Below, one piece after another: positions 2,120 through 13,763 of a stretch of 64,000 bases of DNA (its first letter is position 1; each line of letters opens with the position of its first letter). Below the pieces are notes generated by a model, which saw only the letters and a list, made by a program, of their open reading frames with translations, made no database searches and was not told the DNA's origin. Origin of the DNA: Nanobdellati archaeon (GTDB lineage Archaea > EX4484-52 > GLR71); NCBI GenBank assembly GCA_019429125.1, contig JAHYJO010000003.1:208-64207 (forward strand), given 5' to 3'. Position numbers and translations under genes: made by a program.

Positions 2120-3451
2120 TCACTTTAATATCTCCCAAAATCCTTTTTTGGTTGAACCAACATGTTTAATAATACTTTTTTTACGCAATTGTGTTAAATG
2201 ATATTTCACTCCTTCCTCACTTAGATTAATATTTTGAGCTAATTCTTTTCTTGTAATTGTTGGTTTTGCTCTTATTAATGACAATATTTCTTGGGTAGTT
2301 TCTTGGGTAGTTTTACTAAACCCTCCCTCTTGCAACCGACGATAAAAGACAACTGTAAACCAATCAGAACTGATATCGAAATCAACAGGTAATTTTAATT
2401 TATCACATAAATCTTTAATCTTGTTAATACCCGAACCTAATTTTTCAACAAGATTTAATCTGAAAGCCATATCAACAAGCAAGTGATTTCTAGCTAAACT
2501 CCTTAAACCCAATTCATTTTTGTCAAATAGCAATCCACCAGGGTTTGAAATCTCAACCCTGTCTAAATAGATATCAATCTGTATTCTACCTTTTGAAAAA
2601 TAATCTCTATGAATCATTGCATTTAAGATTGCTTCCCGCAATGCATCCTCTGGCAACTCTAAAATATCATCACGACCCATAGGTTTTGGAATGATGTATG
2701 TGTTTAACTTAGAAACAAGATACTTAAATGAATTTTCGTAATTGGCCACAAAATCAGCATTAAATTCTTGACTGTCAATAATATCTACTCTGTTTTTTCC
2801 TTTCCATAAAACACAGACTATATCTGCGCGACTTAAAAAATGACTTATACATTTACAAAAAAATAAGACACCTGCATTTGTAATTTTTCCATGTTTCAAT
2901 AATCCTAAATTTTTAAGAAGATGTTGTCTATAAATACCTATTGGTATGTTTGTGCGTTTTAGAAAGGTATCAAATATCTCATCATTAAAGTCAGTTGTCA
3001 GATCAAATTCAATATTTACTTTATCATCAAAACTAAGTTTATTTTTTAGTTCAAACAGGCTCCTTATCTCATCAGGTGATATTAATTTTTGTGTAATGTT
3101 TCCTTCTCTTATGAAAAACATACCATTGATATTATGGAGCTCATCACTTTTGAACACTTCAATTATAATGACATCAAGGTCATCACAGAAACTGACATGT
3201 ATATTCAGATTAGGATTTATCTCACGAGCAAAATGTTGAACTTGAGCCAATATAGAATTATCACACTTTACACCTACAACTTTACCTGTATCAGTAACAC
3301 CAATAAGTATTTTTCCACCTAAAGTATTAACAAATGCGCAAATGGAATGTTTAATCTCTTTTCTAAGCTCTTTGCTTAAACTTTCCTTAAATTCCAGATT
3401 CAAGCTTTCTCCAAAAGATATCAGTTCAAGTAAAGCATTTTGGCAGTACAC
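2120..3451 (-). CDS. AlbA_2 (Schlafen-like) domain / ATPase-like domain protein with C-terminal winged HTH
   Basis: N-terminus ESLNLEFKES...ICAFVNTLGGKILIGV (AlbA_2-type). Middle region REAILNAMIHRDY...GRIQIDIYLDRVEISNPGG (HATPase_c_4-like). C-terminus ...KHVGSTKKGFWEILK (wHTH). GTG start. Confidence 0.8.
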   Translation of the reverse strand: MYCQNALLELISFGESLNLEFKESLSKELRKEIKHSICAFVNTLGGKILIGVTDTGKVVGVKCDNSILAQVQHFAREINPNLNIHVSFCDDLDVIIIEVFKSDELHNINGMFFIREGNITQKLISPDEIRSLFELKNKLSFDDKVNIEFDLTTDFNDEIFDTFLKRTNIPIGIYRQHLLKNLGLLKHGKITNAGVLFFCKCISHFLSRADIVCVLWKGKNRVDIIDSQEFNADFVANYENSFKYLVSKLNTYIIPKPMGRDDILELPEDALREAILNAMIHRDYFSKGRIQIDIYLDRVEISNPGGLLFDKNELGLRSLARNHLLVDMAFRLNLVEKLGSGINKIKDLCDKLKLPVDFDISSDWFTVVFYRRLQEGGFSKTTQETTQEILSLIRAKPTITRKELAQNINLSEEGVKYHLTQLRKKSIIKHVGSTKKGFWEILK

Positions 3452-3536: not shown

Positions 3537-3823
3537 TCACTTTACAACTTCCCAATGCCCGCTACTTACAGAACCAACTCGTTTAATAAAACCTTTGTTC
3601 TTTAATGCATTTATATTTTTTTCAATAGCCGTGGTACTAATTTTTATTTTATTCGCAAGAGTTATGATAGATATATTTTTATCAAAAACTATCAAAAACA
3701 ATATTTTCAATTGAGTGTCACCCAACCCATCACCCAACTGTTGTGACCAATCAGAAGTTGGTATAAATTTAACATTATCTTTTTCACATAACGCTTTAAT
3801 TTTTGCAATTCCAGAACCTATCT
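3537..3823 (-). pseudogene. 3' fragment of a second AlbA_2/ATPase-wHTH family gene
   Basis: The open frame reads GSGIAKIKALCEKDNVKFIPTSDW...LGDGLGD...KNKGFIKRVGSVSSGHWEVVK*. It aligns to the last ~95 aa of the intact paralog. There is no N-terminal domain and no ATG. Confidence 0.65.
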
Positions 3824-4410: not shown

Positions 4411-6552
4411 TCATCCCGCAACAATCTGCAGAATATCGTCACCATACTTTACAATCTTCGCAGGTCCAAGACCATGTATCTTTTCAAGTTCAAAAGTAGT
4501 CTTAGGCAAACTTTGCGCAATCTCAAGCAATGTCCTGTCATGCATTACACAGTATGTTGGAATCTCCATCTCGCCGGCAATAGAACTCCTCCAGCTCTTA
4601 AGCCTCATAATTAGGTTTCCTGATAATTTAGAAATATCAACATTGATACCTTTCACAGCTTTAGGCTTCTGAAGTCCACCATCCTCTATCAACTCACGCA
4701 TACTCTTTGTTATAAAATAAGTCGGGTTTTTACCAGTGTATGTCATATATAGGCTCTCCTTTGCCCTGCTCATTGCAACATAAAACAATCTTCTTTCCTC
4801 TTCTTCCTTGTCATATTCCTCAACTTTAACCATATCAACTACAGGATGTTCACTGCCCTTGCACGGAAAATAAGAAGCGTTGCACCCTATGATAAAAACC
4901 ACCTTTGCCTCCATGCCCTTGATTGCATGAACAGTTGCAAGCGTCACATCATCCTTACTGGCTTTACCACTCTTTTTCATTTCATTGCTTCTCACAATAT
5001 GTTTTATCCCTGCAAGCTTCATTCTAGCAGACATCTCATTCAACTGCCTGTTAACTCTTGCAAGCACAAATATTTCATTTCCTGGAAGATCTGAAGCGAT
5101 TATCTTTGCAAGCACAAATGCAAGCTCTGCATCTTCTGAACTAAATTTAACAAGATTGATATCTTTTTCGCCTTCAAGGACAGATTCTAACTCAGCAAGA
5201 CCCATACCCTTAATTGAATTGTTTATCAGCTCAACCAAATACTTTGTTGACCTGTAATTCTTTGACATCGTAATTATATCGCAATCAGGATATTTATCCT
5301 CAAAATTAAGTATATATCTTATATCAGAACCTCTCCAGCCATATATAGACTGCCTCGGGTCACCCACACAAAATAAATTAGGAGAATCTAAAATATCAAT
5401 AAGTTTTATCTGTGTTGAATTGACATCCTGATACTCATCCACAAGTATATGCTCAAATTCAGGTATCAATTCTGTGTGCTTTTCAAACAGAGTTATCGCG
5501 TCAACCAGTTGGTCTGCAAAATCACGCAATCCATATTTTCTCATATATGCCTCAATATAATTACAGACACCAAATACCAGGTCTGCACTTTTTTTATGGC
5601 TATTGTCAACTGTCTCAAAAGACAAGTCCCTAACCAACCTGTTCTTAAACTTATAATAATCCCTGATAAAAAAGCAATCAGTCATAAATATGTTCTGAAG
5701 TTGCTCTGTCGTTTTTCCTTGTTTCTGAGTATGGCTAAAATATATGTTTGTTACCGAACCAGGTGCTATATTCAGACTCAAAAGCGCCTTGTTGACCATC
5801 ACAATCTTATCCCCATAATTAATGACCCTGAAAGATTTATCATAGATCAGGTGATTATGGCGCCTTAAGTTCTTCTCGCAAAATGAATTAAAGGTTTCAA
5901 TATGCAAGTCATCCATATGTTCAAGCCGTCTCATCATTTCAGTTCTTGCTTTTCTAGTAAATGTTATTGCCAGTATTTTTTTAGGATCAACAGCGCAATG
6001 CTTTACTAAAAATTCTATTCTTTTTGTCAGCACTGTAGTTTTTCCTGAACCCGCCCCAGCAAGGCATAATATATGCTTATTATCACTTATGATTGCTTTT
6101 TTCTGTTCATCATTGAAAGGACCAAGAAACTCAGAATATTTGTCAAACAAGACCCTATCATCTTTTGTTATTTGCGTCTGTGTTTCCTTAAAGTTAAAGG
6201 ACAGCTTTTTTTTATACAAGACTGGATTGATTATTTCAGTTTTCCCTTTCTCACTCAATTTCAGCACTTTCCAGAACTTCTTATCCCCGATAAAATCTAT
6301 GCGAATCATATCATTTAGGACAAGATTATCTATCAGCGCATTCAGTTCTTCCTTATCATAAGCAAGCGCACCAAAATTATTTTTTGAATCCAAAGAGTTC
6401 CGTACTATGGATTTATTGGTTTCATCTCCACGAAGAAAATCCACCAATAATTTTTTCCCGACATCAAAAGAGATCTCATCTAGAGCTTTTAACACAAACA
6501 GATAATCCAATTCTTTTCCTATGTTGGCCATAGACAATAAATGAGTTTGCAT
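4411..6552 (-). CDS. UvrD/PcrA-family SF1 helicase with N-terminal RQC-like winged helix and C-terminal HRDC-like domain
   Basis: AGAGSGKTT (Walker A), VDEYQDVN, GDPRQSIYGWRG, VHAIKGMEAKVVF. N-terminus FLRGDETNKS...NFGALAYDKEELNALIDNLV...LKLSEKG resembles RecQ RQC. C-terminus YCVMHDRTLLEIAQSLPKT..ELEKIHGLGPAKIVKYG resembles HRDC. Confidence 0.85.
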   Translation of the reverse strand: MQTHLLSMANIGKELDYLFVLKALDEISFDVGKKLLVDFLRGDETNKSIVRNSLDSKNNFGALAYDKEELNALIDNLVLNDMIRIDFIGDKKFWKVLKLSEKGKTEIINPVLYKKKLSFNFKETQTQITKDDRVLFDKYSEFLGPFNDEQKKAIISDNKHILCLAGAGSGKTTVLTKRIEFLVKHCAVDPKKILAITFTRKARTEMMRRLEHMDDLHIETFNSFCEKNLRRHNHLIYDKSFRVINYGDKIVMVNKALLSLNIAPGSVTNIYFSHTQKQGKTTEQLQNIFMTDCFFIRDYYKFKNRLVRDLSFETVDNSHKKSADLVFGVCNYIEAYMRKYGLRDFADQLVDAITLFEKHTELIPEFEHILVDEYQDVNSTQIKLIDILDSPNLFCVGDPRQSIYGWRGSDIRYILNFEDKYPDCDIITMSKNYRSTKYLVELINNSIKGMGLAELESVLEGEKDINLVKFSSEDAELAFVLAKIIASDLPGNEIFVLARVNRQLNEMSARMKLAGIKHIVRSNEMKKSGKASKDDVTLATVHAIKGMEAKVVFIIGCNASYFPCKGSEHPVVDMVKVEEYDKEEEERRLFYVAMSRAKESLYMTYTGKNPTYFITKSMRELIEDGGLQKPKAVKGINVDISKLSGNLIMRLKSWRSSIAGEMEIPTYCVMHDRTLLEIAQSLPKTTFELEKIHGLGPAKIVKYGDDILQIVAG

Positions 6553-6607: not shown

Positions 6608-7765
6608 AGTAATAATATAGTCTGTAACTATTGCAATAAAAAATGTGGTTCATATCATCTATGTAAAAAATGTGACAAATTAAAAAAAGCGGATAAATTA
6701 ACAAAATGCGAAGATTGTGGTAAGTGGAAAAAAAGTAATAAACCTTTATGTCATGTTTGTTGGAATAAAAATAAACATAAAGAAAATAACATTAAATTCG
6801 AAAATAATATTATTGAAGGAAAAAAAATTGATCAAAATGGATATGAAAGAGGCAAGTGGGAACATAGTACTTTAATTCACAGACAAGTAGCGTATCACGA
6901 CATTTATCTTCTAAATAGAGACGATTATCCTTTAAAGTTTGCACAATATGTAATACATCATATTGATGGAAATAAACGAAATAACCATCGTTCAAATCTT
7001 ATGATACTTACACCAGAACAACATTCAATAATCCATAATATTATTGTGACACCCAAAATAAATAATAAAATAAAACAAAATCCTATAGATAAAGAAAAAG
7101 CCAGTTTATCTCAAAACATAATAGATTTTGAACTTAAACAGCAAGAAGAACATATAAATGAAAAAGAACCCATTTTCTCTCAATATATATCAGAACTTGA
7201 ACTTAAGAATAAACAAGAACCGATAGGTCAAGAACATAATAGACCCAAATCTATAAACAAACAAAACCCTTCTAAGAGTTTTTGGAAACAATATGGGATA
7301 GTCATCATTGCATCTTTGTTATATTCATTATTTAGTTTTAGTAAAAATATTTTGGAAAATGGTGGTATTTTTATTTTATTGAGTTACTTATTTATTTCAG
7401 TTAGTGTATTTTCAGTATTATTTTTCGTTAAATTTAAAATATTTTCAAATAAAAAATCAAATATTAGTAATGGTTTTGTAACGATAGTTATTATTTTTTT
7501 ATTTTTTATTTTAGTGAGTATTGTTTCATCCTTTTACGAGGGTGATAATTGTATATATGTGGTTCCAATGATAAATTCAGAGGATGGAATAGCTACTATT
7601 TCTGAACAATTTAATGAAAATCTTGCAATTGCTTACTGTGGTGATGAAGCAGAAAAAAAGTGGAGAGAATTAGGGGTTATTGATGATAAGTATATATTTA
7701 AAAAAGGGAGATTTGCGAGTATTAAAGAATTGTGGTCTATTTTAGTTTTAAAATTAGAATATTAA
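6608..7765 (+). CDS. Zn-ribbon + HNH endonuclease domain fused to a multi-TM C-terminal region; no canonical start upstream of the HNH motif
   Basis: The frame is open from 6608: CNYCNKKC..CKKC, CEDCGK..CHVC, then YVIHHIDGNKRNNHRSNLMILTPEQHSIIH. The track ORF starts at 7001, inside the HNH motif. About three hydrophobic helices lie near 7300-7540. Confidence 0.5.
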   Translation, partial: SNNIVCNYCNKKCGSYHLCKKCDKLKKADKLTKCEDCGKWKKSNKPLCHVCWNKNKHKENNIKFENNIIEGKKIDQNGYERGKWEHSTLIHRQVAYHDIYLLNRDDYPLKFAQYVIHHIDGNKRNNHRSNLMILTPEQHSIIHNIIVTPKINNKIKQNPIDKEKASLSQNIIDFELKQQEEHINEKEPIFSQYISELELKNKQEPIGQEHNRPKSINKQNPSKSFWKQYGIVIIASLLYSLFSFSKNILENGGIFILLSYLFISVSVFSVLFFVKFKIFSNKKSNISNGFVTIVIIFLFFILVSIVSSFYEGDNCIYVVPMINSEDGIATISEQFNENLAIAYCGDEAEKKWRELGVIDDKYIFKKGRFASIKELWSILVLKLEY

Positions 7766-7827
7766 ACAATCCCCAACCCCCCCAAACAACATAAAACAAT
7801 TTATAGATATCAGTTACATATATCTTT

Positions 7828-8208
7828 ATGAAACGTCTAACAATCAAAGATATGCAGAAATTAGCAGGACTTAAAGGTGGTAGATGTAGTTCTGAGGAAT
7901 ATATCAGTTCAAGAATTAAACTCAAATGGCGCTGTAAAAATGGGCATGTCTGGGAAACTACACCCAAAGATATAAAAAGAGGTTCATGGTGTCCCAAATG
8001 CGAAAAAGTCGCAGATCTTTCAATCAACGAGATGCATAAGATAGCTAAAGATAGAGGTGGTAAATGTCTCTCTAAAAAATATATAAATAGTTACACAGAC
8101 CTCAAATGGTGCTGTAAAAAAGGACACGAATGGGAAACAACACATGATTCAATTAAAAAAGGTAAATGGTGCCCAACTTGTGCAAAGGAAATAACCAAAG
8201 CAAGATAA
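7828..8208 (+). CDS. Tandem-duplicated zinc-ribbon module protein
   Basis: Two ~58-aa repeats with the pattern GG.C.S..Y......LKW.C..GH.WET.....IK.G.WCP.C. Confidence 0.6.
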   Translation: MKRLTIKDMQKLAGLKGGRCSSEEYISSRIKLKWRCKNGHVWETTPKDIKRGSWCPKCEKVADLSINEMHKIAKDRGGKCLSKKYINSYTDLKWCCKKGHEWETTHDSIKKGKWCPTCAKEITKAR

Positions 8209-8261
8209 AAATCTTACATACTGGATAAACAATATAAAGCCAAAAGAACAGAAGTTATAAT

Positions 8262-8804
8262 ATGGATACTCTATTTCATCTTGTCTTTTCAGTCATTGTA
8301 GGTCTTGCAATCTGCCTCAAGAGGAAACACAAAATAAGTATTCTTATAGCCCTTGCATCATTATCCATACTTGTTGACATTGATCATTTTTTTTGGTTTG
8401 AGACAAGAGGAACTTTCCATAACATATTTTTTATATTCTTAATACCGTTGACCTTATTCGCAGTATCATATATTTACGAAAACAAAAAATCTATACGCCT
8501 GCAGACATATTCATTGCTACTATTTGTGATGTTGACAGGACACGTCATAACTGATATGTTTTATGGTGGTATCGTTAAGATTTTCTATCCTTTATCGACT
8601 GTATCTTACAGTTTTCCAAACTATACAATTCTAGCAACATCTGAATTCTATTCACCTATAATAGCCGGAGACGGGTTGATACTGCTCATTTGTTCTATAA
8701 TACTATTATCTGTAATATTCATAGAAGATGTAATCTATCATTTTGAGATTAAAAATGAGAGTAAAAAGAAAGCTTTGCGCAGTGCCTTCAAAAATCTTGT
8801 ATAG
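8262..8804 (+). CDS. Membrane-bound metal-dependent hydrolase, YdjM/DUF457-like
   Basis: MDTLFHLVFS... N-terminus, a DIDH motif and 5-6 hydrophobic segments. Confidence 0.6.
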   Translation: MDTLFHLVFSVIVGLAICLKRKHKISILIALASLSILVDIDHFFWFETRGTFHNIFFIFLIPLTLFAVSYIYENKKSIRLQTYSLLLFVMLTGHVITDMFYGGIVKIFYPLSTVSYSFPNYTILATSEFYSPIIAGDGLILLICSIILLSVIFIEDVIYHFEIKNESKKKALRSAFKNLV

Positions 8805-8819
8805 GTCTTGTTAAAAATA

Positions 8820-9107
8820 TCATCTTAAAACTTCCCAATGCCCACCTTTATCAGGACCAACTCTTTTGATTCTATTTTCGTTTTTAAGCTTTTTTAATTG
8901 CCCTTCAATAGCCTTTAGGCTTATCTCTAATTTTTCAGATAATTCAATTTGTGTAATAGACTTGTTACTCAAAATAAGTTCAATGATTTTCTCCCTAGTT
9001 TTCTCCCTAGTTTTCACAACATTCTTTATCTCAAATGTAGCGCTAAAAAATCCAGAAAACTCAACAATTTCAGACTCTTTATCCATAAAAAACCCTTTTA
9101 AAATCAA
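8820..9107 (-). CDS. wHTH-only mini-protein derived from the AlbA_2/ATPase family by internal deletion
   Basis: N-terminus ESEIVEF parallels ESLNLEF of the intact paralog. It is then joined directly to FSATFEIKN..(TREK)2..IELILSNKSITQIELSEKL...KRVGPDKGGHWEVLR. The family promoter block is retained upstream. Confidence 0.6.
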   Translation of the reverse strand: MILKGFFMDKESEIVEFSGFFSATFEIKNVVKTREKTREKIIELILSNKSITQIELSEKLEISLKAIEGQLKKLKNENRIKRVGPDKGGHWEVLR

Positions 9108-9123
9108 TATTACAGTATATTAC

Positions 9124-9177
9124 AGTATTATTGACTTTACAGAGTACATAATAACTGGTTACTACCTAAGGTGGTAA
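9124..9177 (-). promoter_or_regulatory. Second copy of the family promoter block (ACTAC-N5-GTGGT)
   Basis: See 3457..3507. It is preceded by a 10-bp tandem duplication attacagtat x2. Confidence 0.4.
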
Positions 9178-9232
9178 AAGATAAGAAACAGAAAATGTTA
9201 CTATGCAATCAAATTACATAATTTATCATATT

Positions 9233-10126
9233 CTAAAAATACAATTTCAAAAAATTAGCCCTGTGCCCTGCGCCAACAATCAACAAGACATCACCATAAG
9301 TAGCAATAGCATCAAGTTGACTTTTAATAAACCGAGTCTTGGTTTTACTAATCTCATCGTGTTTTTCATATTCAGTCAGGCCACCGCCTTGTTGAAATGT
9401 TGAAATATTAAATATCTCTTTATAATCTGCAGTTACCATATCCACAGCTTTGACAATGATATTATTTTCTTTTGCGAAATTCAAAATGCGCGTATAATCA
9501 TCATAAGGTCCAACAGATGCATGGTCTTGAGCTAATTTTATCCTGACCACAGTAGAGTCTATATTACCGGCCATATAACTATCAATAATTCTTTGTCCAT
9601 CATCGGATGTCAATTCAAGTGCCAAAACATTAGGTTCTATTGCCTCAATCCCTTTAAGAAATATGTCCACACGATCAATATCAACACACATATAGCCTCT
9701 TGAAATTTCACTTATTTTATGGTTCGTGTCCCATAGACAAGTTATATTTTCATTAATATTTTCATAAGAAAAGACAATTGGAACCTTATCACCAGATACA
9801 ATAATATCCAATCCATATTCATTATCTATTGGAAATGGAAGCTTAAAATATTTCTTAAATGCAAGCAACATTGCTAATTCCTTAACTTCATATTTATTAT
9901 ATAGCATATCATGATTAGATTTATTTATTTTCAATTGTTCTAAATTATTAAACATATATTTTGGTACTTCTGAATTCGATTGTCCCTTTGGTAAATTTTT
10001 ATAACCTATAATATCAATTGTATATCTTTGACATTCCTCTGCTAATCTAATGACTTGTTCCTTAAGTTTTTTGAATTCATCTATGTCTGCCTGAATCTTA
10101 TGTATACCTTCTGGACTAAAATCCAT
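9233..10126 (-). CDS. Hypothetical protein; C-terminal half weakly reminiscent of the ChaN/TraB/Tiki-type fold
   Basis: Long ORF. The family hint rests only on ...ALELTSDDGQRIIDSYMAGNI..., YDDYTRILNFAKENNIIVKAVDM and the terminal DVLLIVGAGH. ATG at 10126; the track TTG start is at 10138. Confidence 0.55.
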   Translation of the reverse strand: MDFSPEGIHKIQADIDEFKKLKEQVIRLAEECQRYTIDIIGYKNLPKGQSNSEVPKYMFNNLEQLKINKSNHDMLYNKYEVKELAMLLAFKKYFKLPFPIDNEYGLDIIVSGDKVPIVFSYENINENITCLWDTNHKISEISRGYMCVDIDRVDIFLKGIEAIEPNVLALELTSDDGQRIIDSYMAGNIDSTVVRIKLAQDHASVGPYDDYTRILNFAKENNIIVKAVDMVTADYKEIFNISTFQQGGGLTEYEKHDEISKTKTRFIKSQLDAIATYGDVLLIVGAGHRANFLKLYF

Positions 10127-10225
10127 ATAAATCACCAATAATAAATATTAGTTTTCAAATCTTTTTAATTTCACTTATAATCGCAAAAAATAAAAATTTT
10201 AAATAGAATATGTTAAGTAATCCAT

Positions 10226-10864
10226 CTAATAATCATCAAGTTTTAGTTCTTTATCAAACCGTTTCAAATTACCCGCATCAATAGTCCATATCCTAAAAAA
10301 TTCAGAAGTTGCTTTTACTAAGTCACTAAGTGTAGCCCCAACAATATATGAAGAATTTTTCACGTCACCCACATCTACTATCTCAATATTTTTGGAATCT
10401 TTTAACAGATTCAATATTGGGTCATCGTAACCCAAATCGCAAGCATTAAGGGTTGATATAGTATTTATAAAATAATTTCGAAGTTCACTGATACAATATC
10501 CATATTCATGAGATCCTAATAATTGATAGTTAAATATAGGAGGCATACTCAACAGCTCTAATTGCTCCAATAAATCAGATATTTTAGTTTTATTGATTAG
10601 AATTTCTGCTTCAGCTGTATCTTGAAGAGCAATTGCTGTCCTTTCAATAAATTTATATTTTTCATCATCTGAGAGACTTATATAATTTTTATCATAAGTT
10701 ATTGGTACTGGTAATTCAACAAAGACTTTAGTAAGTTTATCATCAATTCCTATATAAAAAGTAAGTAGCTTACCAGAAAAAGTCATATCACCTTTTCTAA
10801 GATTCCATTTGTTTGATATTTCAGAAGTTAAGTCGATTATTGTGAACTTTTTATCATACATCAT
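10226..10864 (-). CDS. Hypothetical protein (no recognisable domain)
   Basis: 212-aa ORF immediately upstream of, and co-oriented with, 9233..10126. Confidence 0.55.
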   Translation of the reverse strand: MMYDKKFTIIDLTSEISNKWNLRKGDMTFSGKLLTFYIGIDDKLTKVFVELPVPITYDKNYISLSDDEKYKFIERTAIALQDTAEAEILINKTKISDLLEQLELLSMPPIFNYQLLGSHEYGYCISELRNYFINTISTLNACDLGYDDPILNLLKDSKNIEIVDVGDVKNSSYIVGATLSDLVKATSEFFRIWTIDAGNLKRFDKELKLDDY

Positions 10865-10944
10865 AATAAAATAATTATTAACTTTTTAAACTTATGTTTG
10901 TCACATAACAAAGATAACAAATATTAATTAAAACTATAATTTTC

Positions 10945-10965
10945 TACCGGCACAACCGGCATGCC
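10945..10965. promoter_or_regulatory. GC-rich motif TACCGGCACA-N7-TGCC upstream of the Cas4-like/HerA genes
   Basis: The same 10-mer recurs at 33228..33237 upstream of uvrA, followed there by TGCC after 4 nt. In both cases it lies just upstream of a TATA-like element. Confidence 0.4.
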
Positions 10966-11007
10966 TGTATAGAACTCCTTAAATACTCTCAAAAGTTAAT
11001 AACACAC

Positions 11008-11625
11008 ATGAAACTAGTCCCCATATCAGCCCTTGGAACCCACAATTACTGCCAGTGTCAGATAATATTAAGATACATAAGAAAGATGCACCCCGGAACT
11101 GATAAAGTCTACGACGGAATAACAGCCCATAGACTATTAGATACAAATTTCATAAAATCTGCAGACATAGAAGACACAGTAGATAACATAATAACAAGAG
11201 CAAAAAAAGAAAACACAATATTTTGCACAAGAGAAATAAAAGTAAGATCAAAAGAACACAGATTGATTGGACGAATTGACGAGGTAGAGCTCCATCCAAA
11301 AAAGATTATAATAATTGACGACAAACCAAACGCAAAAGCATACCAATCCTCAAAACTTCAGGTCACAGGTTACTGCATAGCATTCAAAAAAAATTACAAC
11401 ATAAAAAAAGACATTTATGCAGCAGTAAGGGACAGAGACACTGGAGTGATTGTCTGGATGGAAAAGTTTGAAAGTAATAGCTCTTTAGCAGAAACAGTGA
11501 AAACAAGCGTGGAATCAATACTAGCGCTCACTGCAGGAATTAGCAAACCCAAACCTCAAAAAGACATAAACCGTTGCAATTCATGCGGTTATCTTGACCG
11601 TTGCACATACAGGGAAGGTTTCTAA
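11008..11625 (+). CDS. Cas4-like PD-(D/E)xK nuclease with 4-Cys Fe-S signature (stand-alone, not CRISPR-linked)
   Basis: N-terminal Cys in NYCQCQ, GRIDEV, IIIDDKP, QVTGYC and C-terminal CNSCGYLDRC match the Cas4/DUF83 motif order. Confidence 0.75.
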   Translation: MKLVPISALGTHNYCQCQIILRYIRKMHPGTDKVYDGITAHRLLDTNFIKSADIEDTVDNIITRAKKENTIFCTREIKVRSKEHRLIGRIDEVELHPKKIIIIDDKPNAKAYQSSKLQVTGYCIAFKKNYNIKKDIYAAVRDRDTGVIVWMEKFESNSSLAETVKTSVESILALTAGISKPKPQKDINRCNSCGYLDRCTYREGF

Positions 11626-11669
11626 GATTTATTAAGGTTAAACAATAATTAAAAACAAGGTAATAATAA

Positions 11670-13178
11670 ATGAAAATAGGAACTGTAATCTCAACAATGG
11701 ACGGGCCAAGCACAACTTCTTTTGATTTTGTAGTAACAGCGAAAGACAAAGTCTTAAAAGGCCAGTTTGTAAGCGTAGAAACCAAAGAAGGAACAATAAT
11801 AGCGCGCGTTGACGAGATAATAAAAACAAACAGATATCTTGAACGCCCCGATTCAGTAGGCGAATACGAAAAAGGTGGAGAATCAATAAAAGACATATTT
11901 CCGACAGCAAGATGGGAATTTTTAGTTGCAAGAACTGAAATATTAGGTGTCGCAACAGAAACCACAATAAACAGATCTAAATATCCACCATCACCAGGCG
12001 CCGAAGTCACACCGTCAGAAGAAAAAATAGTAGTCAAATTCTTAAGCCTTGATCTTGAAAACGGTCTAGATATTGGCACTTTAGAATACCAAGACATTCC
12101 CGCAAAGATAAACCTTACAAGACTTTTCCAGAAACACGTAGCAATCCTTGCGATGAGTGGTGCAGGCAAAAGTTACCTCACTACAGTCTTATTTGAAGAG
12201 TTGATGGACAGAACTGAAAAGACTGGTCAGGTAGCAATAGTAGTCCTTGACCCTCACGGCGAATACTCATCCCTTTCAGAAGACCGTAAATACATGAAAA
12301 AAGTAAAAGTCATAAAAGGTAAAGATATACAAATCAGTATCCAGAATTACACCGCAAGATTTTTTGAACGTTTCTTTGAATCTTTGTCACCTGCCCAGTC
12401 ACTAGCTTTAGACAAGACATTAAATGAATTAAGAAAAGAGTTCAAAGACAGTGGTAAGTTTGACCTTGACGACCTAATCAAGACATTAAAAGCAGACTCA
12501 ACCTTAAAATCAAACGTCAAAGACCCCATCCTAGGAAGATTATCAAGCCTGAAAAACATGAAACTTTTCGGCAAGTTTGATTATCCAACTTTAAAAGATG
12601 TAAAACCAGGCCATCTAGTCATAATTGACATGAGCACACTCATGAATCAACAAAAACGCCAAGTGATAGCAGCGTCAATTGCAGAAAATCTATTCGCAGA
12701 AAGACAGAAAGGCAACATCCCACCATTTGTATTGGTTGTCGAAGAAGCGCACAACTTTGCCCCGGAAAAAGTCAAAAAAACAAGTGCAATATCAAAATCC
12801 ATAATTGAAAAGATAGCGCGAGAAGGCCGGAAATTCTATGCATCCCTGTGCCTTGTAAGCCAGAGACCCGTATACCTATCAACAACAGCACTGTCTCAGT
12901 GTAACACACACATTATAATGCGCGTCACAAATCCCTCAGACCTTGACCACATAGGCCGAACAAGTGAAGGCCTGACAAGAGATGTAGTCAACTCCATCGC
13001 ATCATTGAGAACTGGCGAGGCAGTGATAGTGGGTGAAGCCGTAGGTTACCCTACATTCATAAAGGTCCGAAAAAGAAAGTCTGATGAGCCTGCGCATTCA
13101 AGAACATTGGAACAGGCCGCAGTAGAATATTCAGATAATAAGAAGCAGTATGATAAAGATTTAGATGCTTTTCTATAA
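11670..13178 (+). CDS. herA: HerA-type (DUF87) ATPase/helicase
   Basis: N-terminal HAS-barrel-like region (GTVIS...GQFVSVE...IARVDEI), Walker A AMSGAGKSY, Walker B VLVVEEAHNF, and SLCLVSQRP...THIIMRVTNPSD. Confidence 0.88.
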   Translation: MKIGTVISTMDGPSTTSFDFVVTAKDKVLKGQFVSVETKEGTIIARVDEIIKTNRYLERPDSVGEYEKGGESIKDIFPTARWEFLVARTEILGVATETTINRSKYPPSPGAEVTPSEEKIVVKFLSLDLENGLDIGTLEYQDIPAKINLTRLFQKHVAILAMSGAGKSYLTTVLFEELMDRTEKTGQVAIVVLDPHGEYSSLSEDRKYMKKVKVIKGKDIQISIQNYTARFFERFFESLSPAQSLALDKTLNELRKEFKDSGKFDLDDLIKTLKADSTLKSNVKDPILGRLSSLKNMKLFGKFDYPTLKDVKPGHLVIIDMSTLMNQQKRQVIAASIAENLFAERQKGNIPPFVLVVEEAHNFAPEKVKKTSAISKSIIEKIAREGRKFYASLCLVSQRPVYLSTTALSQCNTHIIMRVTNPSDLDHIGRTSEGLTRDVVNSIASLRTGEAVIVGEAVGYPTFIKVRKRKSDEPAHSRTLEQAAVEYSDNKKQYDKDLDAFL

Positions 13179-13235: not shown

Positions 13236-13763
13236 CTATGACAGATCTTCAATCCCTACTTTACCGACATAAAGCATTTTAAGGTCACCACCAGCATCAG
13301 CAAATTCCTTTACTTTGTAAAATCCTTCAAGATAAACATGGTCTTTGACATACCCTCTACCTCTATATACCCGTACACACAGGTTCCAAACATTATCATC
13401 TGTAAACGCAAAACCTGCCAAAATATCAAAACATTCTCTGAAACTTAATCCTTTAACGACAGAATCAACAGCGATTAATCTTGCCACATAATCGCGCATC
13501 ATTTCCGGAATCATATTGCCAGTCTTATATTCAAAATATGATACCATTCCTTCTACTGTAGATAAGTATCCAGGTAGCCCCATAGCAAATATCTTTAATG
13601 GCTGACTATGACCATTAGCAGCCCGTAATACATGCCTCCATACCTCATGCGCACACAATCTTTTCAGGTCAATAGATGTAAATTTTCGGGTTTTACATAT
13701 CGTTATCTTTTTCTCGGTAGGATAGACAGTAGTCCATCTTTTACTTGAATATTCAATAGTCAA
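13236..13763 (-). pseudogene. C-terminal half of a DUF1704/MATCAP-like metallopeptidase
   Basis: CAHEVWRHVLRAANG (HExxxH) followed by STVEGMVSYFE (QEGLA-like). Only ~38 aa precede the metal motif. Confidence 0.55.

Follow-up and report, generated by a model that had tools for sequence, protein, structure and literature searches.

A Cas4-like nuclease gene beside a canonical herA in a narrow clade of DPANN archaea

HerA, the ring translocase of archaea, is thought to require a nuclease partner, and to our knowledge NurA is the only partner known in archaea. What, then, is to be made of a herA gene whose upstream neighbor encodes a nuclease of the Cas4 family? The question is raised by a 64,000-nt stretch of DNA from a Nanobdellati archaeon (assembly GCA_019429125.1, contig JAHYJO010000003.1, positions 208 to 64,207 of the forward strand; hereafter the window, or 64-kb window), in which the initial annotation had placed a Cas4-like nuclease gene 44 bp upstream of herA. 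The two open reading frames (ORFs), 11008-11625 and 11670-13178, are confirmed, on the same strand and with this spacing. The pair is kept in all six distinct loci of its clade that have readable context, and we read it, tentatively and with somewhat less than even confidence, as a co-transcribed motor-nuclease pair for DNA-end processing, in which the Cas4-like enzyme would be an alternative or additional nuclease partner of a canonical HerA. The features of the pair are as follows (loci fetched from relatives are given below as L numbers).

11008..11625, plus strand: stand-alone Cas4-family Fe-S PD-(D/E)xK nuclease of 205 amino acids (aa), with Cas4 matches in Pfam, PADLOC, and NCBIfam
11670..13178, plus strand: canonical archaeal HerA translocase of 502 aa, with an N-terminal beta-barrel and a RecA-like core
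10946..10961, plus strand: 16-nt motif ACCGGCACAACCGGCA, in which CCGGCA occurs twice as a half-site; it lies 47-62 nt before the start codon of the nuclease gene
10979..10985, plus strand: TATA-box-like TTAAATA, about 26 nt upstream of the ATG
11626..11669, plus strand: 44-bp spacer between the two genes, with a Shine-Dalgarno (SD)-like AAGGT at 11657-11661 and no obvious separate promoter

The nuclease, HerA, and their upstream region

The product of 11008-11625 matches PDDEXK_1 (2.3e-8, 34.7 bits, cut-off 22) and Cas_Cas4 (PF01930; 3e-7, 31.1 bits, cut-off 22.7) in Pfam and many Cas4 models in PADLOC, and it scores 45.8 bits against TIGR00372 of NCBIfam, which is below the equivalog cut-off of 65. 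When the window protein was aligned with eight relatives (nine sequences, down to 34% identity), the RecB-type motifs G88-x-I-D91, D104-D105-K106, and Q118-x3-Y122 proved invariant, as did C15 and C190-x2-C193-x5-C199, whose four cysteines are the predicted ligands of an Fe-S cluster. The complete Cas4 motif order that had been reported for this protein therefore stands, and so does the 1+3 cysteine signature as far as C15, C190, C193, and C199 are concerned; C17, the second cysteine in “YCQCQ”, varies among the relatives and drops out of it. The initial annotation had also named a loss of catalytic residues as an outcome that would speak against it, and all nine sequences keep the catalytic motifs. 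The AlphaFold2 (AF2) model of the nuclease has a predicted local distance difference test (pLDDT) score of 71, with residues 27-56 poorly modelled; its top Foldseek matches are Cas4 in Cas4-Cas1-Cas2 complexes (7mi5, 8d3l; E 2e-7, TMq 0.65), followed by Exo5, MGME1, SSO0001, AdnAB, and Dna2. With invariant motifs and cysteines and a modelled Cas4/Exo5/AddB-like fold, the nuclease looks active. Since the window contains no CRISPR-like repeat array, and no cas1 or cas2 family is annotated on the genes called in six clade loci, the protein is an intact solo Cas4-like nuclease and not a CRISPR component. Remote homology to NurA was not found (hhalign probability 0.09%).

The neighboring ATPase had been described as a HerA, with a HAS barrel and a P-loop, and it is a true HerA by its DUF87 match (1.5e-34, Pfam), its full-length fold, and its place in the HerA orthogroup (see below); its Pfam match to the HAS barrel is weak (18.6 bits, cut-off 25.2). 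In the AF2 model (pLDDT 84), strands spanning 4-95 make up an N-terminal domain that is all beta. The closest structural match, covering the entire chain, is S. solfataricus HerA 4d2i (template modeling scores 0.74/0.81, 500 columns); 9x1m comes next, and bacterial defence HerAs follow. The best sequence match in the Protein Data Bank is 9X1L, T. kodakarensis HerA from the HerA-NurA complex. The best NCBIfam models are two for double-strand break (DSB) repair HerA, NF040819 and NF040937, with scores far below their equivalog cut-offs (178 vs 970 and 149 vs 800 bits); the antiphage HerA models score 133 and 125 bits, and antiphage/CedD models are likewise far below cut-off. PADLOC HerA models match strongly (3e-56). 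In an alignment of 14 HerA sequences, Walker A (GAGKS164-168, that is G164-x-G166-K167-S168) and Walker B (VVEEAH356-361) are invariant, as are the C-terminal motifs R384-E385-G386-R387-K388-F389 and Q398-R399-P400. The invariant Walker A/B and arginine residues, together with a modelled fold that matches 4d2i and 9x1m over its full length, make this HerA look active as well.

Upstream of the nuclease gene, the GC-rich motif ACCGGCACNNCCGGCA is invariant in eight of eight clade loci, while the surrounding AT-rich intergenic region has diverged (for example, the motif is found at L001 4131-4146, L002 7939-7954, L004 4071-4086, L007 1094-1109, and L008 3039-3054). It has a single match in the 64-kb window even when two mismatches are allowed (0.02 expected by chance), and none of the other 106 loci that were fetched contains it. 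ACCGGCACAACCGGCA is likely a putative operator or activator site, at which binding of a regulator is predicted. The TATA-like element recurs as TTAAAWA at the same distance in five of six aligned upstream regions, the sixth (L008) having ATAAAAA, and TTAAATA would fit an archaeal promoter with a leaderless or short-leader mRNA. At herA only an SD-like motif precedes the gene (GGT/GGTG-like motifs lie 6-10 nt before the ATG across loci); ACCGGCACNNCCGGCA and the TATA-like box stand only before the nuclease gene. This arrangement suggests a single regulated bicistronic transcript.

A lack of conserved adjacency in relatives had been named as grounds for refutation, and the adjacency is conserved: the six loci that keep the pair are those of the window, L001, L002, L004, L007, and L008, with a RhuM insertion in one lineage, and every readable nuclease relative of at least 55% identity has a same-strand DUF87 gene downstream of it. 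The two genes are 44-45 bp apart in the window, L001, L002/L003/L006, and L007; in L008 they are 75 bp apart. In relatives with 55-91% identity, the catalytic residues of both proteins do not vary. The genes on either side of the pair differ among the clade loci, both upstream (orf212, orf194, a phosphoribosyltransferase gene, PDDEXK_1) and downstream (MATCAP, 213-aa, and 250-aa genes).

Relatives of HerA and of the nuclease

HerA has thousands of relatives. A scan of GTDB species genomes gave 80 loci, among them orthologs with about 45-51% identity in Aenigmatarchaeota, Iainarchaeota, Micrarchaeota, Undinarchaeota, Nanohaloarchaeota, Hadarchaeota, Odinarchaeota, and Methanobacteriota; 77 orthologous HerA loci outside the clade were used for counts. 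None of the 77 has a Cas4-like gene beside herA. In 12 of them, the gene directly upstream, in the same orientation, is a Pfam-confirmed nurA; a search with a hidden Markov model (HMM) built from the Pfam-confirmed NurAs places NurA no more than 6 kb upstream in at least 29 of the 77, a minimum given the shortness of many contigs. The same approach detected no NurA in the contigs of the clade, which are short. We also tried to trace a clade NurA through the nearest NurA found (that of L086); its best matches, 53% and 46% identical, come from other samples and are uninformative.

In a neighbor-joining tree of 86 HerAs (distance-based, without support values), the Cas4-linked HerAs form one small derived clade nested in the canonical orthogroup, among HerAs that are 45-55% identical. 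Its successive sisters are L087, in which HerA is alone, L088, with no adjacent nuclease, and L086, with NurA 3 kb upstream. A DRG-type GTPase gene lies downstream of herA in both L087 and the window, and their HerAs are therefore positional orthologs; the synteny of the DRG GTPase gene and a gene for a large surface protein is kept across the clade and this sister. The tree follows lineage groupings. Because the window HerA is nested among NurA- or Rad50-linked HerAs and has a positional ortholog in L087, it is the canonical archaeal ortholog of its lineage and not a defence paralog; a grouping with unrelated DUF87 ATPases, which the initial annotation had considered as a possible refutation, is not what the tree gives. 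The Cas4-like gene appears to have come into the “nurA slot” (upstream, same strand) at the base of the clade. A replacement of NurA in situ in L087 was considered and rejected: the 351-aa gene upstream of its herA is neither NurA nor Cas4-like (HMM, hhalign) and has no Pfam match, and its product reads as a secreted transglutaminase-like protein.

A separate arrangement was seen in several Aenigmatarchaeota loci (L015, L037, L062, and others), in which herA adjoins a divergent, short (about 250 aa) Metallophos gene and no NurA gene is adjacent. For example, in L037 the Metallophos gene is at 5218-5967, and a convergent gene for a 787-aa Rad50 with a zinc hook (7495-9861) lies on the other flank of herA. 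The short phosphoesterase could be a minimal Mre11.

For the nuclease, a word-index search returned only nine relatives; an exhaustive profile search among 1.84 billion proteins gave 352 representatives at E <= 1e-3. Nearly all of these are stand-alone proteins of about 200-230 aa, and in the few fused ones the partner is RNase_H_2 (three cases), an RNase HI-like domain, HD, or TPR (the RNase H-domain fusions are representatives P0294, P0297, P0268, and P0300). A metagenome scan found 23 loci with relatives 29-35% identical to the window nuclease, in varied, housekeeping contexts that include genes for primase, thermosome (overlapping), RtcB, Kae1, a RecJ-like DHH protein, and an XPD-like helicase. 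In L103 (465-2352) and L108 (713-2435), there is an overlap between the Cas4-like gene and the 3′ end of a gene for a fused PriS-PriL primase; a DHH/RecJ-like gene is near the Cas4-like homologs of L091 and L095, and an XPD-like helicase gene is near that of L110. The primase, RecJ-like, and XPD-like contexts and the RNase H fusions hint at a role of the subfamily in replication or primer processing. No relative of the nuclease was found in IMG/VR viral contigs, and the PHROG matches are generic only, so a viral origin was rejected. Because of the housekeeping contexts, the stand-alone form, and the lack of viral relatives, we place the nuclease in a family of solo Cas4-like nucleases of DNA metabolism that is small and probably inherited vertically, and in which the linkage to HerA is an exception; by the contexts and the labels of the metagenome-assembled genomes (MAGs) seen, the subfamily appears to be mainly DPANN.

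The exception has one parallel. In the archaeal locus L093 (1965-4466), rpl11 is followed by a Cas4-like gene, 29% identical to that of the window, and then, 268 bp downstream, by a gene for a very divergent DUF87/HerA_C ATPase; this is the sole locus among the 23 metagenomic relatives with a HerA-like gene downstream of the Cas4-like gene. It is an independent second juxtaposition of a Cas4-like and a HerA-like gene, and it supports a link between the two.

Neighboring genes and genomic setting

The window comes from the chromosome of a DPANN archaeon: its G+C content is low (33%), its genes include those for TBP, ribosomal protein L10e, aIF2/IF-2-type GTPases, UvrA, Nuo subunits, diphthamide synthase, and six tRNAs, and the nearest public sequences belong to DPANN MAGs that carry the label Nanohaloarchaea or Aenigmatarchaeota. 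The statement that it lacks NurA, Mre11, Rad50, and CRISPR/cas genes agrees with our searches. An HMM of NurAs from DPANN neighbors found none in the 64 kb, and NurA, Mre11 (Metallophos), and the Rad50 hook are missing from the 25 families listed of the 54 matched by 34 window ORFs in Pfam, where two ORFs matched SMC_N. The same Pfam listing for the 34 ORFs names no cas genes, and no further check was directed at them. Three further genes border the pair.

10226..10864, minus strand: divergent ORF of 212 aa (orf212), a neighbor only, outside the conserved module
9233..10138 (9233-10126 from the ATG), minus strand: ChaN/Tiki-superfamily-like gene of 301 aa (Pfam Cofac_haem_bdg, 1.1e-6)
13236-13763, minus strand: MATCAP/QEGLA-family gene fragment, 5′-truncated, corresponding to residues 164-360 of the 361-aa L002 homolog

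The first two of these ORFs do exist and do diverge from the 143-bp intergenic region, and they had been counted with the pair as a four-gene cluster, a claim that the relatives contradict. For orf212 there is no family match above any threshold in Pfam, PADLOC, NCBIfam, or PHROG, and no homolog in L002 (in which the nuclease is 88% identical) or in the other clade loci; the 211-aa gene downstream of herA in L001/L007, tried as its counterpart, is unrelated to orf212 and to orf223. The ChaN/Tiki-like gene has homologs in L002 (71% identical) and L001 (40%, separated from the pair by a phosphoribosyltransferase gene) and recurs in L003; it is absent beside the pair in L004, L007, and L008, and it is thus a syntenic neighbor in only part of the clade, without evident link to DNA metabolism. 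From this patchiness and the differing flanks it follows that the conserved unit is the nuclease-HerA pair only, not four genes. The gene fragment that had been noted beside the cluster is confirmed: the downstream MATCAP-like gene is 5′-truncated, and its intact counterpart in L002 shares 18 nt with the 3′ end of herA. One sub-clade has a larger PD-(D/E)xK nuclease gene (394 aa, PDDEXK_1 1.3e-34; L001 774-1958, L004 2689-3873, L005 3125-4309), which lies 0.3-2.3 kb upstream of the Cas4-like gene and has no window homolog.

Farther upstream in the window, a minus-strand gene at 4411-6552 encodes a UvrD/PcrA-like superfamily 1 (SF1) helicase whose UvrD core bears two accessory domains of RecQ type, an RQC-like winged helix at the N-terminus and HRDC at the C-terminus; it is matched by the GajB models of PADLOC. 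Another minus-strand gene, at 2120-3451, encodes a protein with Schlafen/AlbA_2, HATPase_c_4, and winged helix-turn-helix (HTH) domains, a type common in defence islands; several small HTH genes and paralogous HTH fragments (1538-1768, 3540-3704, 8820-9107) adjoin it. A perfect 12-nt tandem repeat, TTTACAGGGACA x 4.2, occupies 1767-1817, and related 12-nt repeats are found at 1724-1758 and 2287-2313. The small protein encoded at 7828-8208 (plus strand) consists of two DUF4379 treble-clef zinc-finger repeats, and its 185-aa homolog in L002 aligns to it in two registers, which fits these repeats.

A coupled machine, chance neighbors, or a defence module

In the motor-nuclease reading, a TATA-like promoter preceded by the clade-specific ACCGGCACNNCCGGCA operator-like motif would drive one mRNA for the nuclease and then HerA. 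The HerA ring would translocate along a DNA end, or feed it in, and the Cas4-like Fe-S 5′-end-processing nuclease would degrade the displaced strand, for use in recombinational repair and possibly in the destruction of linear foreign DNA; such a machine would be analogous to HerA-NurA, AddAB, AdnAB, and Dna2. The coupling of the two proteins, physical or functional, and the polarity of degradation are what we infer from this picture. A swap of partners, from NurA to a Cas4-like nuclease, is plausible. The fuller version, a non-orthologous displacement in which NurA was lost in the clade and a Cas4-type nuclease docks on the HAS-barrel face of the HerA hexamer, we consider unlikely. Were it true, this would be the first FtsK-HerA ring translocase to drive a Cas4/AddB-type nuclease and an undescribed archaeal resection or degradation machine, under a dedicated operator, ACCGGCACNNCCGGCA, and it would tie the evolutionary origin of Cas4, the nuclease of CRISPR adaptation, to end processing driven by HerA.

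Several observations weigh against coupling, and most of them favor an alternative in which a solo Cas4-like nuclease and a canonical HerA act independently, having become neighbors through rearrangement at the base of the clade in a compact genome; HerA would then use a NurA encoded elsewhere, and the nuclease would process flaps, primers, or ends independently of HerA. The association is limited to a narrow clade (HerA identity of 73% or higher), and because gene order is generally conserved within such a clade, adjacency is weak evidence of coupling. In L004 (4912-5940) and L005 (5348-6376), a gene of the RhuM family (Virulence_RhuM) stands between the Cas4-like gene and herA (1.2 kb), so an insertion between the two is tolerated. 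The nuclease subfamily occurs in the many unrelated, mostly housekeeping settings described above, and its fusions are to RNase H-like domains, with no Rosetta-stone fusion to HerA among the 352 representatives. Nor does the local absence of NurA say much, since NurA and HerA are frequently not linked in DPANN archaea: no NurA lies within 6 kb in 48 of the 77 orthologous loci, and solitary nurA genes occur (L112, L113). HerA itself bears no signature of a change of partner. The HAS barrel is its NurA-binding domain (PMC12977600), and this domain shows no excess divergence from NurA-linked orthologs; identities per domain equal those among NurA-linked HerAs, and the only clade-specific substitutions, L179M/I and L287I, are conservative. 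(The NurA-contact residues of T. kodakarensis HerA are unmappable on the window HerA, as the HAS domains do not align by sequence.) In the sister L087, moreover, HerA stands alone beside the transglutaminase-like gene in the same syntenic position. Against mere coincidence speak the persistence of the pair through the reshuffling of both flanks, the one conserved promoter/operator region that it has, the second, independent juxtaposition in L093, and the failure to trace any NurA to the clade. We hold coincidence to be the chief rival, a distinct, if somewhat doubtful, possibility; if it is correct, the locus is merely a correctly annotated pair of repair genes.

A dedicated defence module, in which HerA and a PD-(D/E)xK effector would degrade invading or host DNA in the manner of DUF4297-HerA or Sir2-HerA, is suggested by the strong PADLOC HerA matches and the Cas4 model matches of the nuclease, and by flanks that look accessory (the truncated MATCAP gene, non-conserved ORFs, the Schlafen/AlbA_2 ATPase, the upstream GajB-like UvrD helicase, and RhuM in L004). 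A 2026 study moreover argues that canonical HerA-NurA breaks down both DNA strands and might have an antiviral role (PMC12977600), and this proposal of foreign-DNA degradation blurs the distinction between repair and defence. We nonetheless consider such a module a weaker, less likely alternative, and indeed an improbable one, because HerA is the canonical ortholog, favored by the repair-type NCBIfam model (178 bits vs 133 and 125 for antiphage models), and because the lineage-following tree and the DRG GTPase synteny argue for vertical inheritance and not for a mobile island. The nuclease has relatives in housekeeping contexts and none in viral contigs, and neither Sir2 nor DUF4297 is matched by the window pair in Pfam or PADLOC. 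That the arrangement is a functionless remnant, with one or both genes decaying in a reduced genome, might be argued from the fragmented neighbors such as the MATCAP gene; both ORFs are of full length, however, their catalytic residues are invariant across the 55-91% identical relatives, and their structure models are confident, so this reading is largely refuted by the conservation data and has very little probability left.

The motor-nuclease reading thus has to be set beside the systems that it resembles. The end-processing complex of archaeal HerA and NurA, which works with Mre11-Rad50, is known from S. solfataricus (4D2I) and T. kodakarensis (9X1L-9X1P; PMC12977600; PMC3326311), and whether NurA truly serves resection or DNA destruction is being debated anew (PMC12977600). 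The window HerA belongs to the same orthologous family by full-length fold, Walker motifs, and tree position, and the nuclease gene directly precedes herA in the same orientation, as in nurA-herA operons; the nuclease, however, is a 205-aa Cas4-type Fe-S PD-(D/E)xK enzyme, whereas NurA has an RNase H-like fold, and no mre11 or rad50 gene is near the pair. The bacterial anti-phage systems DUF4297-HerA (PMC11291478; 8XAU, 8ZIQ, 9C1M) and Sir2-HerA (8WLD, 8J4U) are likewise two-gene modules of a HerA ATPase and an effector, and the DUF4297 effector is also a PD-(D/E)xK-type nuclease, activated by assembly on the HerA hexamer. They differ in that the window HerA is the canonical archaeal one, the nuclease is a Cas4-type Fe-S enzyme and not DUF4297 or Sir2, and the pair is chromosomal and probably inherited vertically in DPANN archaea.

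From the side of the nuclease, a survey of solo Cas4 and Cas4-like proteins (Hudaiberdiev et al., 2017; PMC5704561) found them linked or fused to helicases, both UvrD-like SF1 and COG1205 superfamily 2 (SF2) enzymes; HerA, DUF87, and NurA have no occurrences in that paper. The window nuclease is like the surveyed proteins in being stand-alone, with a four-cysteine cluster, RecB motifs, and no cas neighbors, and unlike the surveyed Cas4-helicase pairs in that its motor would be a ring translocase of the FtsK-HerA type and not an SF1 or SF2 helicase. The joining of an ATP-driven DNA motor to a RecB-family nuclease would follow the logic of AddAB, AdnAB, RecBCD, and Dna2, and the nucleases of AddB, AdnAB, and Dna2 share the Fe-S cysteine arrangement of the window nuclease; those enzymes are SF1 fusions or heterodimers, whereas the motor here would be a separate hexameric HerA ring. 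There is precedent, by analogy, for HerA with nucleases other than NurA, which would support coupling: besides DUF4297 (PMC11291478), Deinococcus HerA can bind and stimulate the 5′-3′ nuclease RecJ (PMC4663267), in that case a DHH-family nuclease, in a bacterium in which NurA is also present and competes.

Full-text searches found no description of a Cas4-like-HerA pair in the papers covered. If the coupling is real, it would explain what one of the many enigmatic “solo Cas4” proteins does in the cell, and if the pair is co-expressed, it would offer insight into how minimal DPANN genomes rebuild recombination pathways. A lineage that co-expresses a canonical HerA and a Cas4-type nuclease would allow a comparison to learn what in the HerA machine is set by its nuclease. 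Modules of HerA with a nuclease are known, as are links of Cas4-like proteins to SF1 and SF2 helicases; the pairing of a Cas4-like nuclease with HerA is a new combination of the two.

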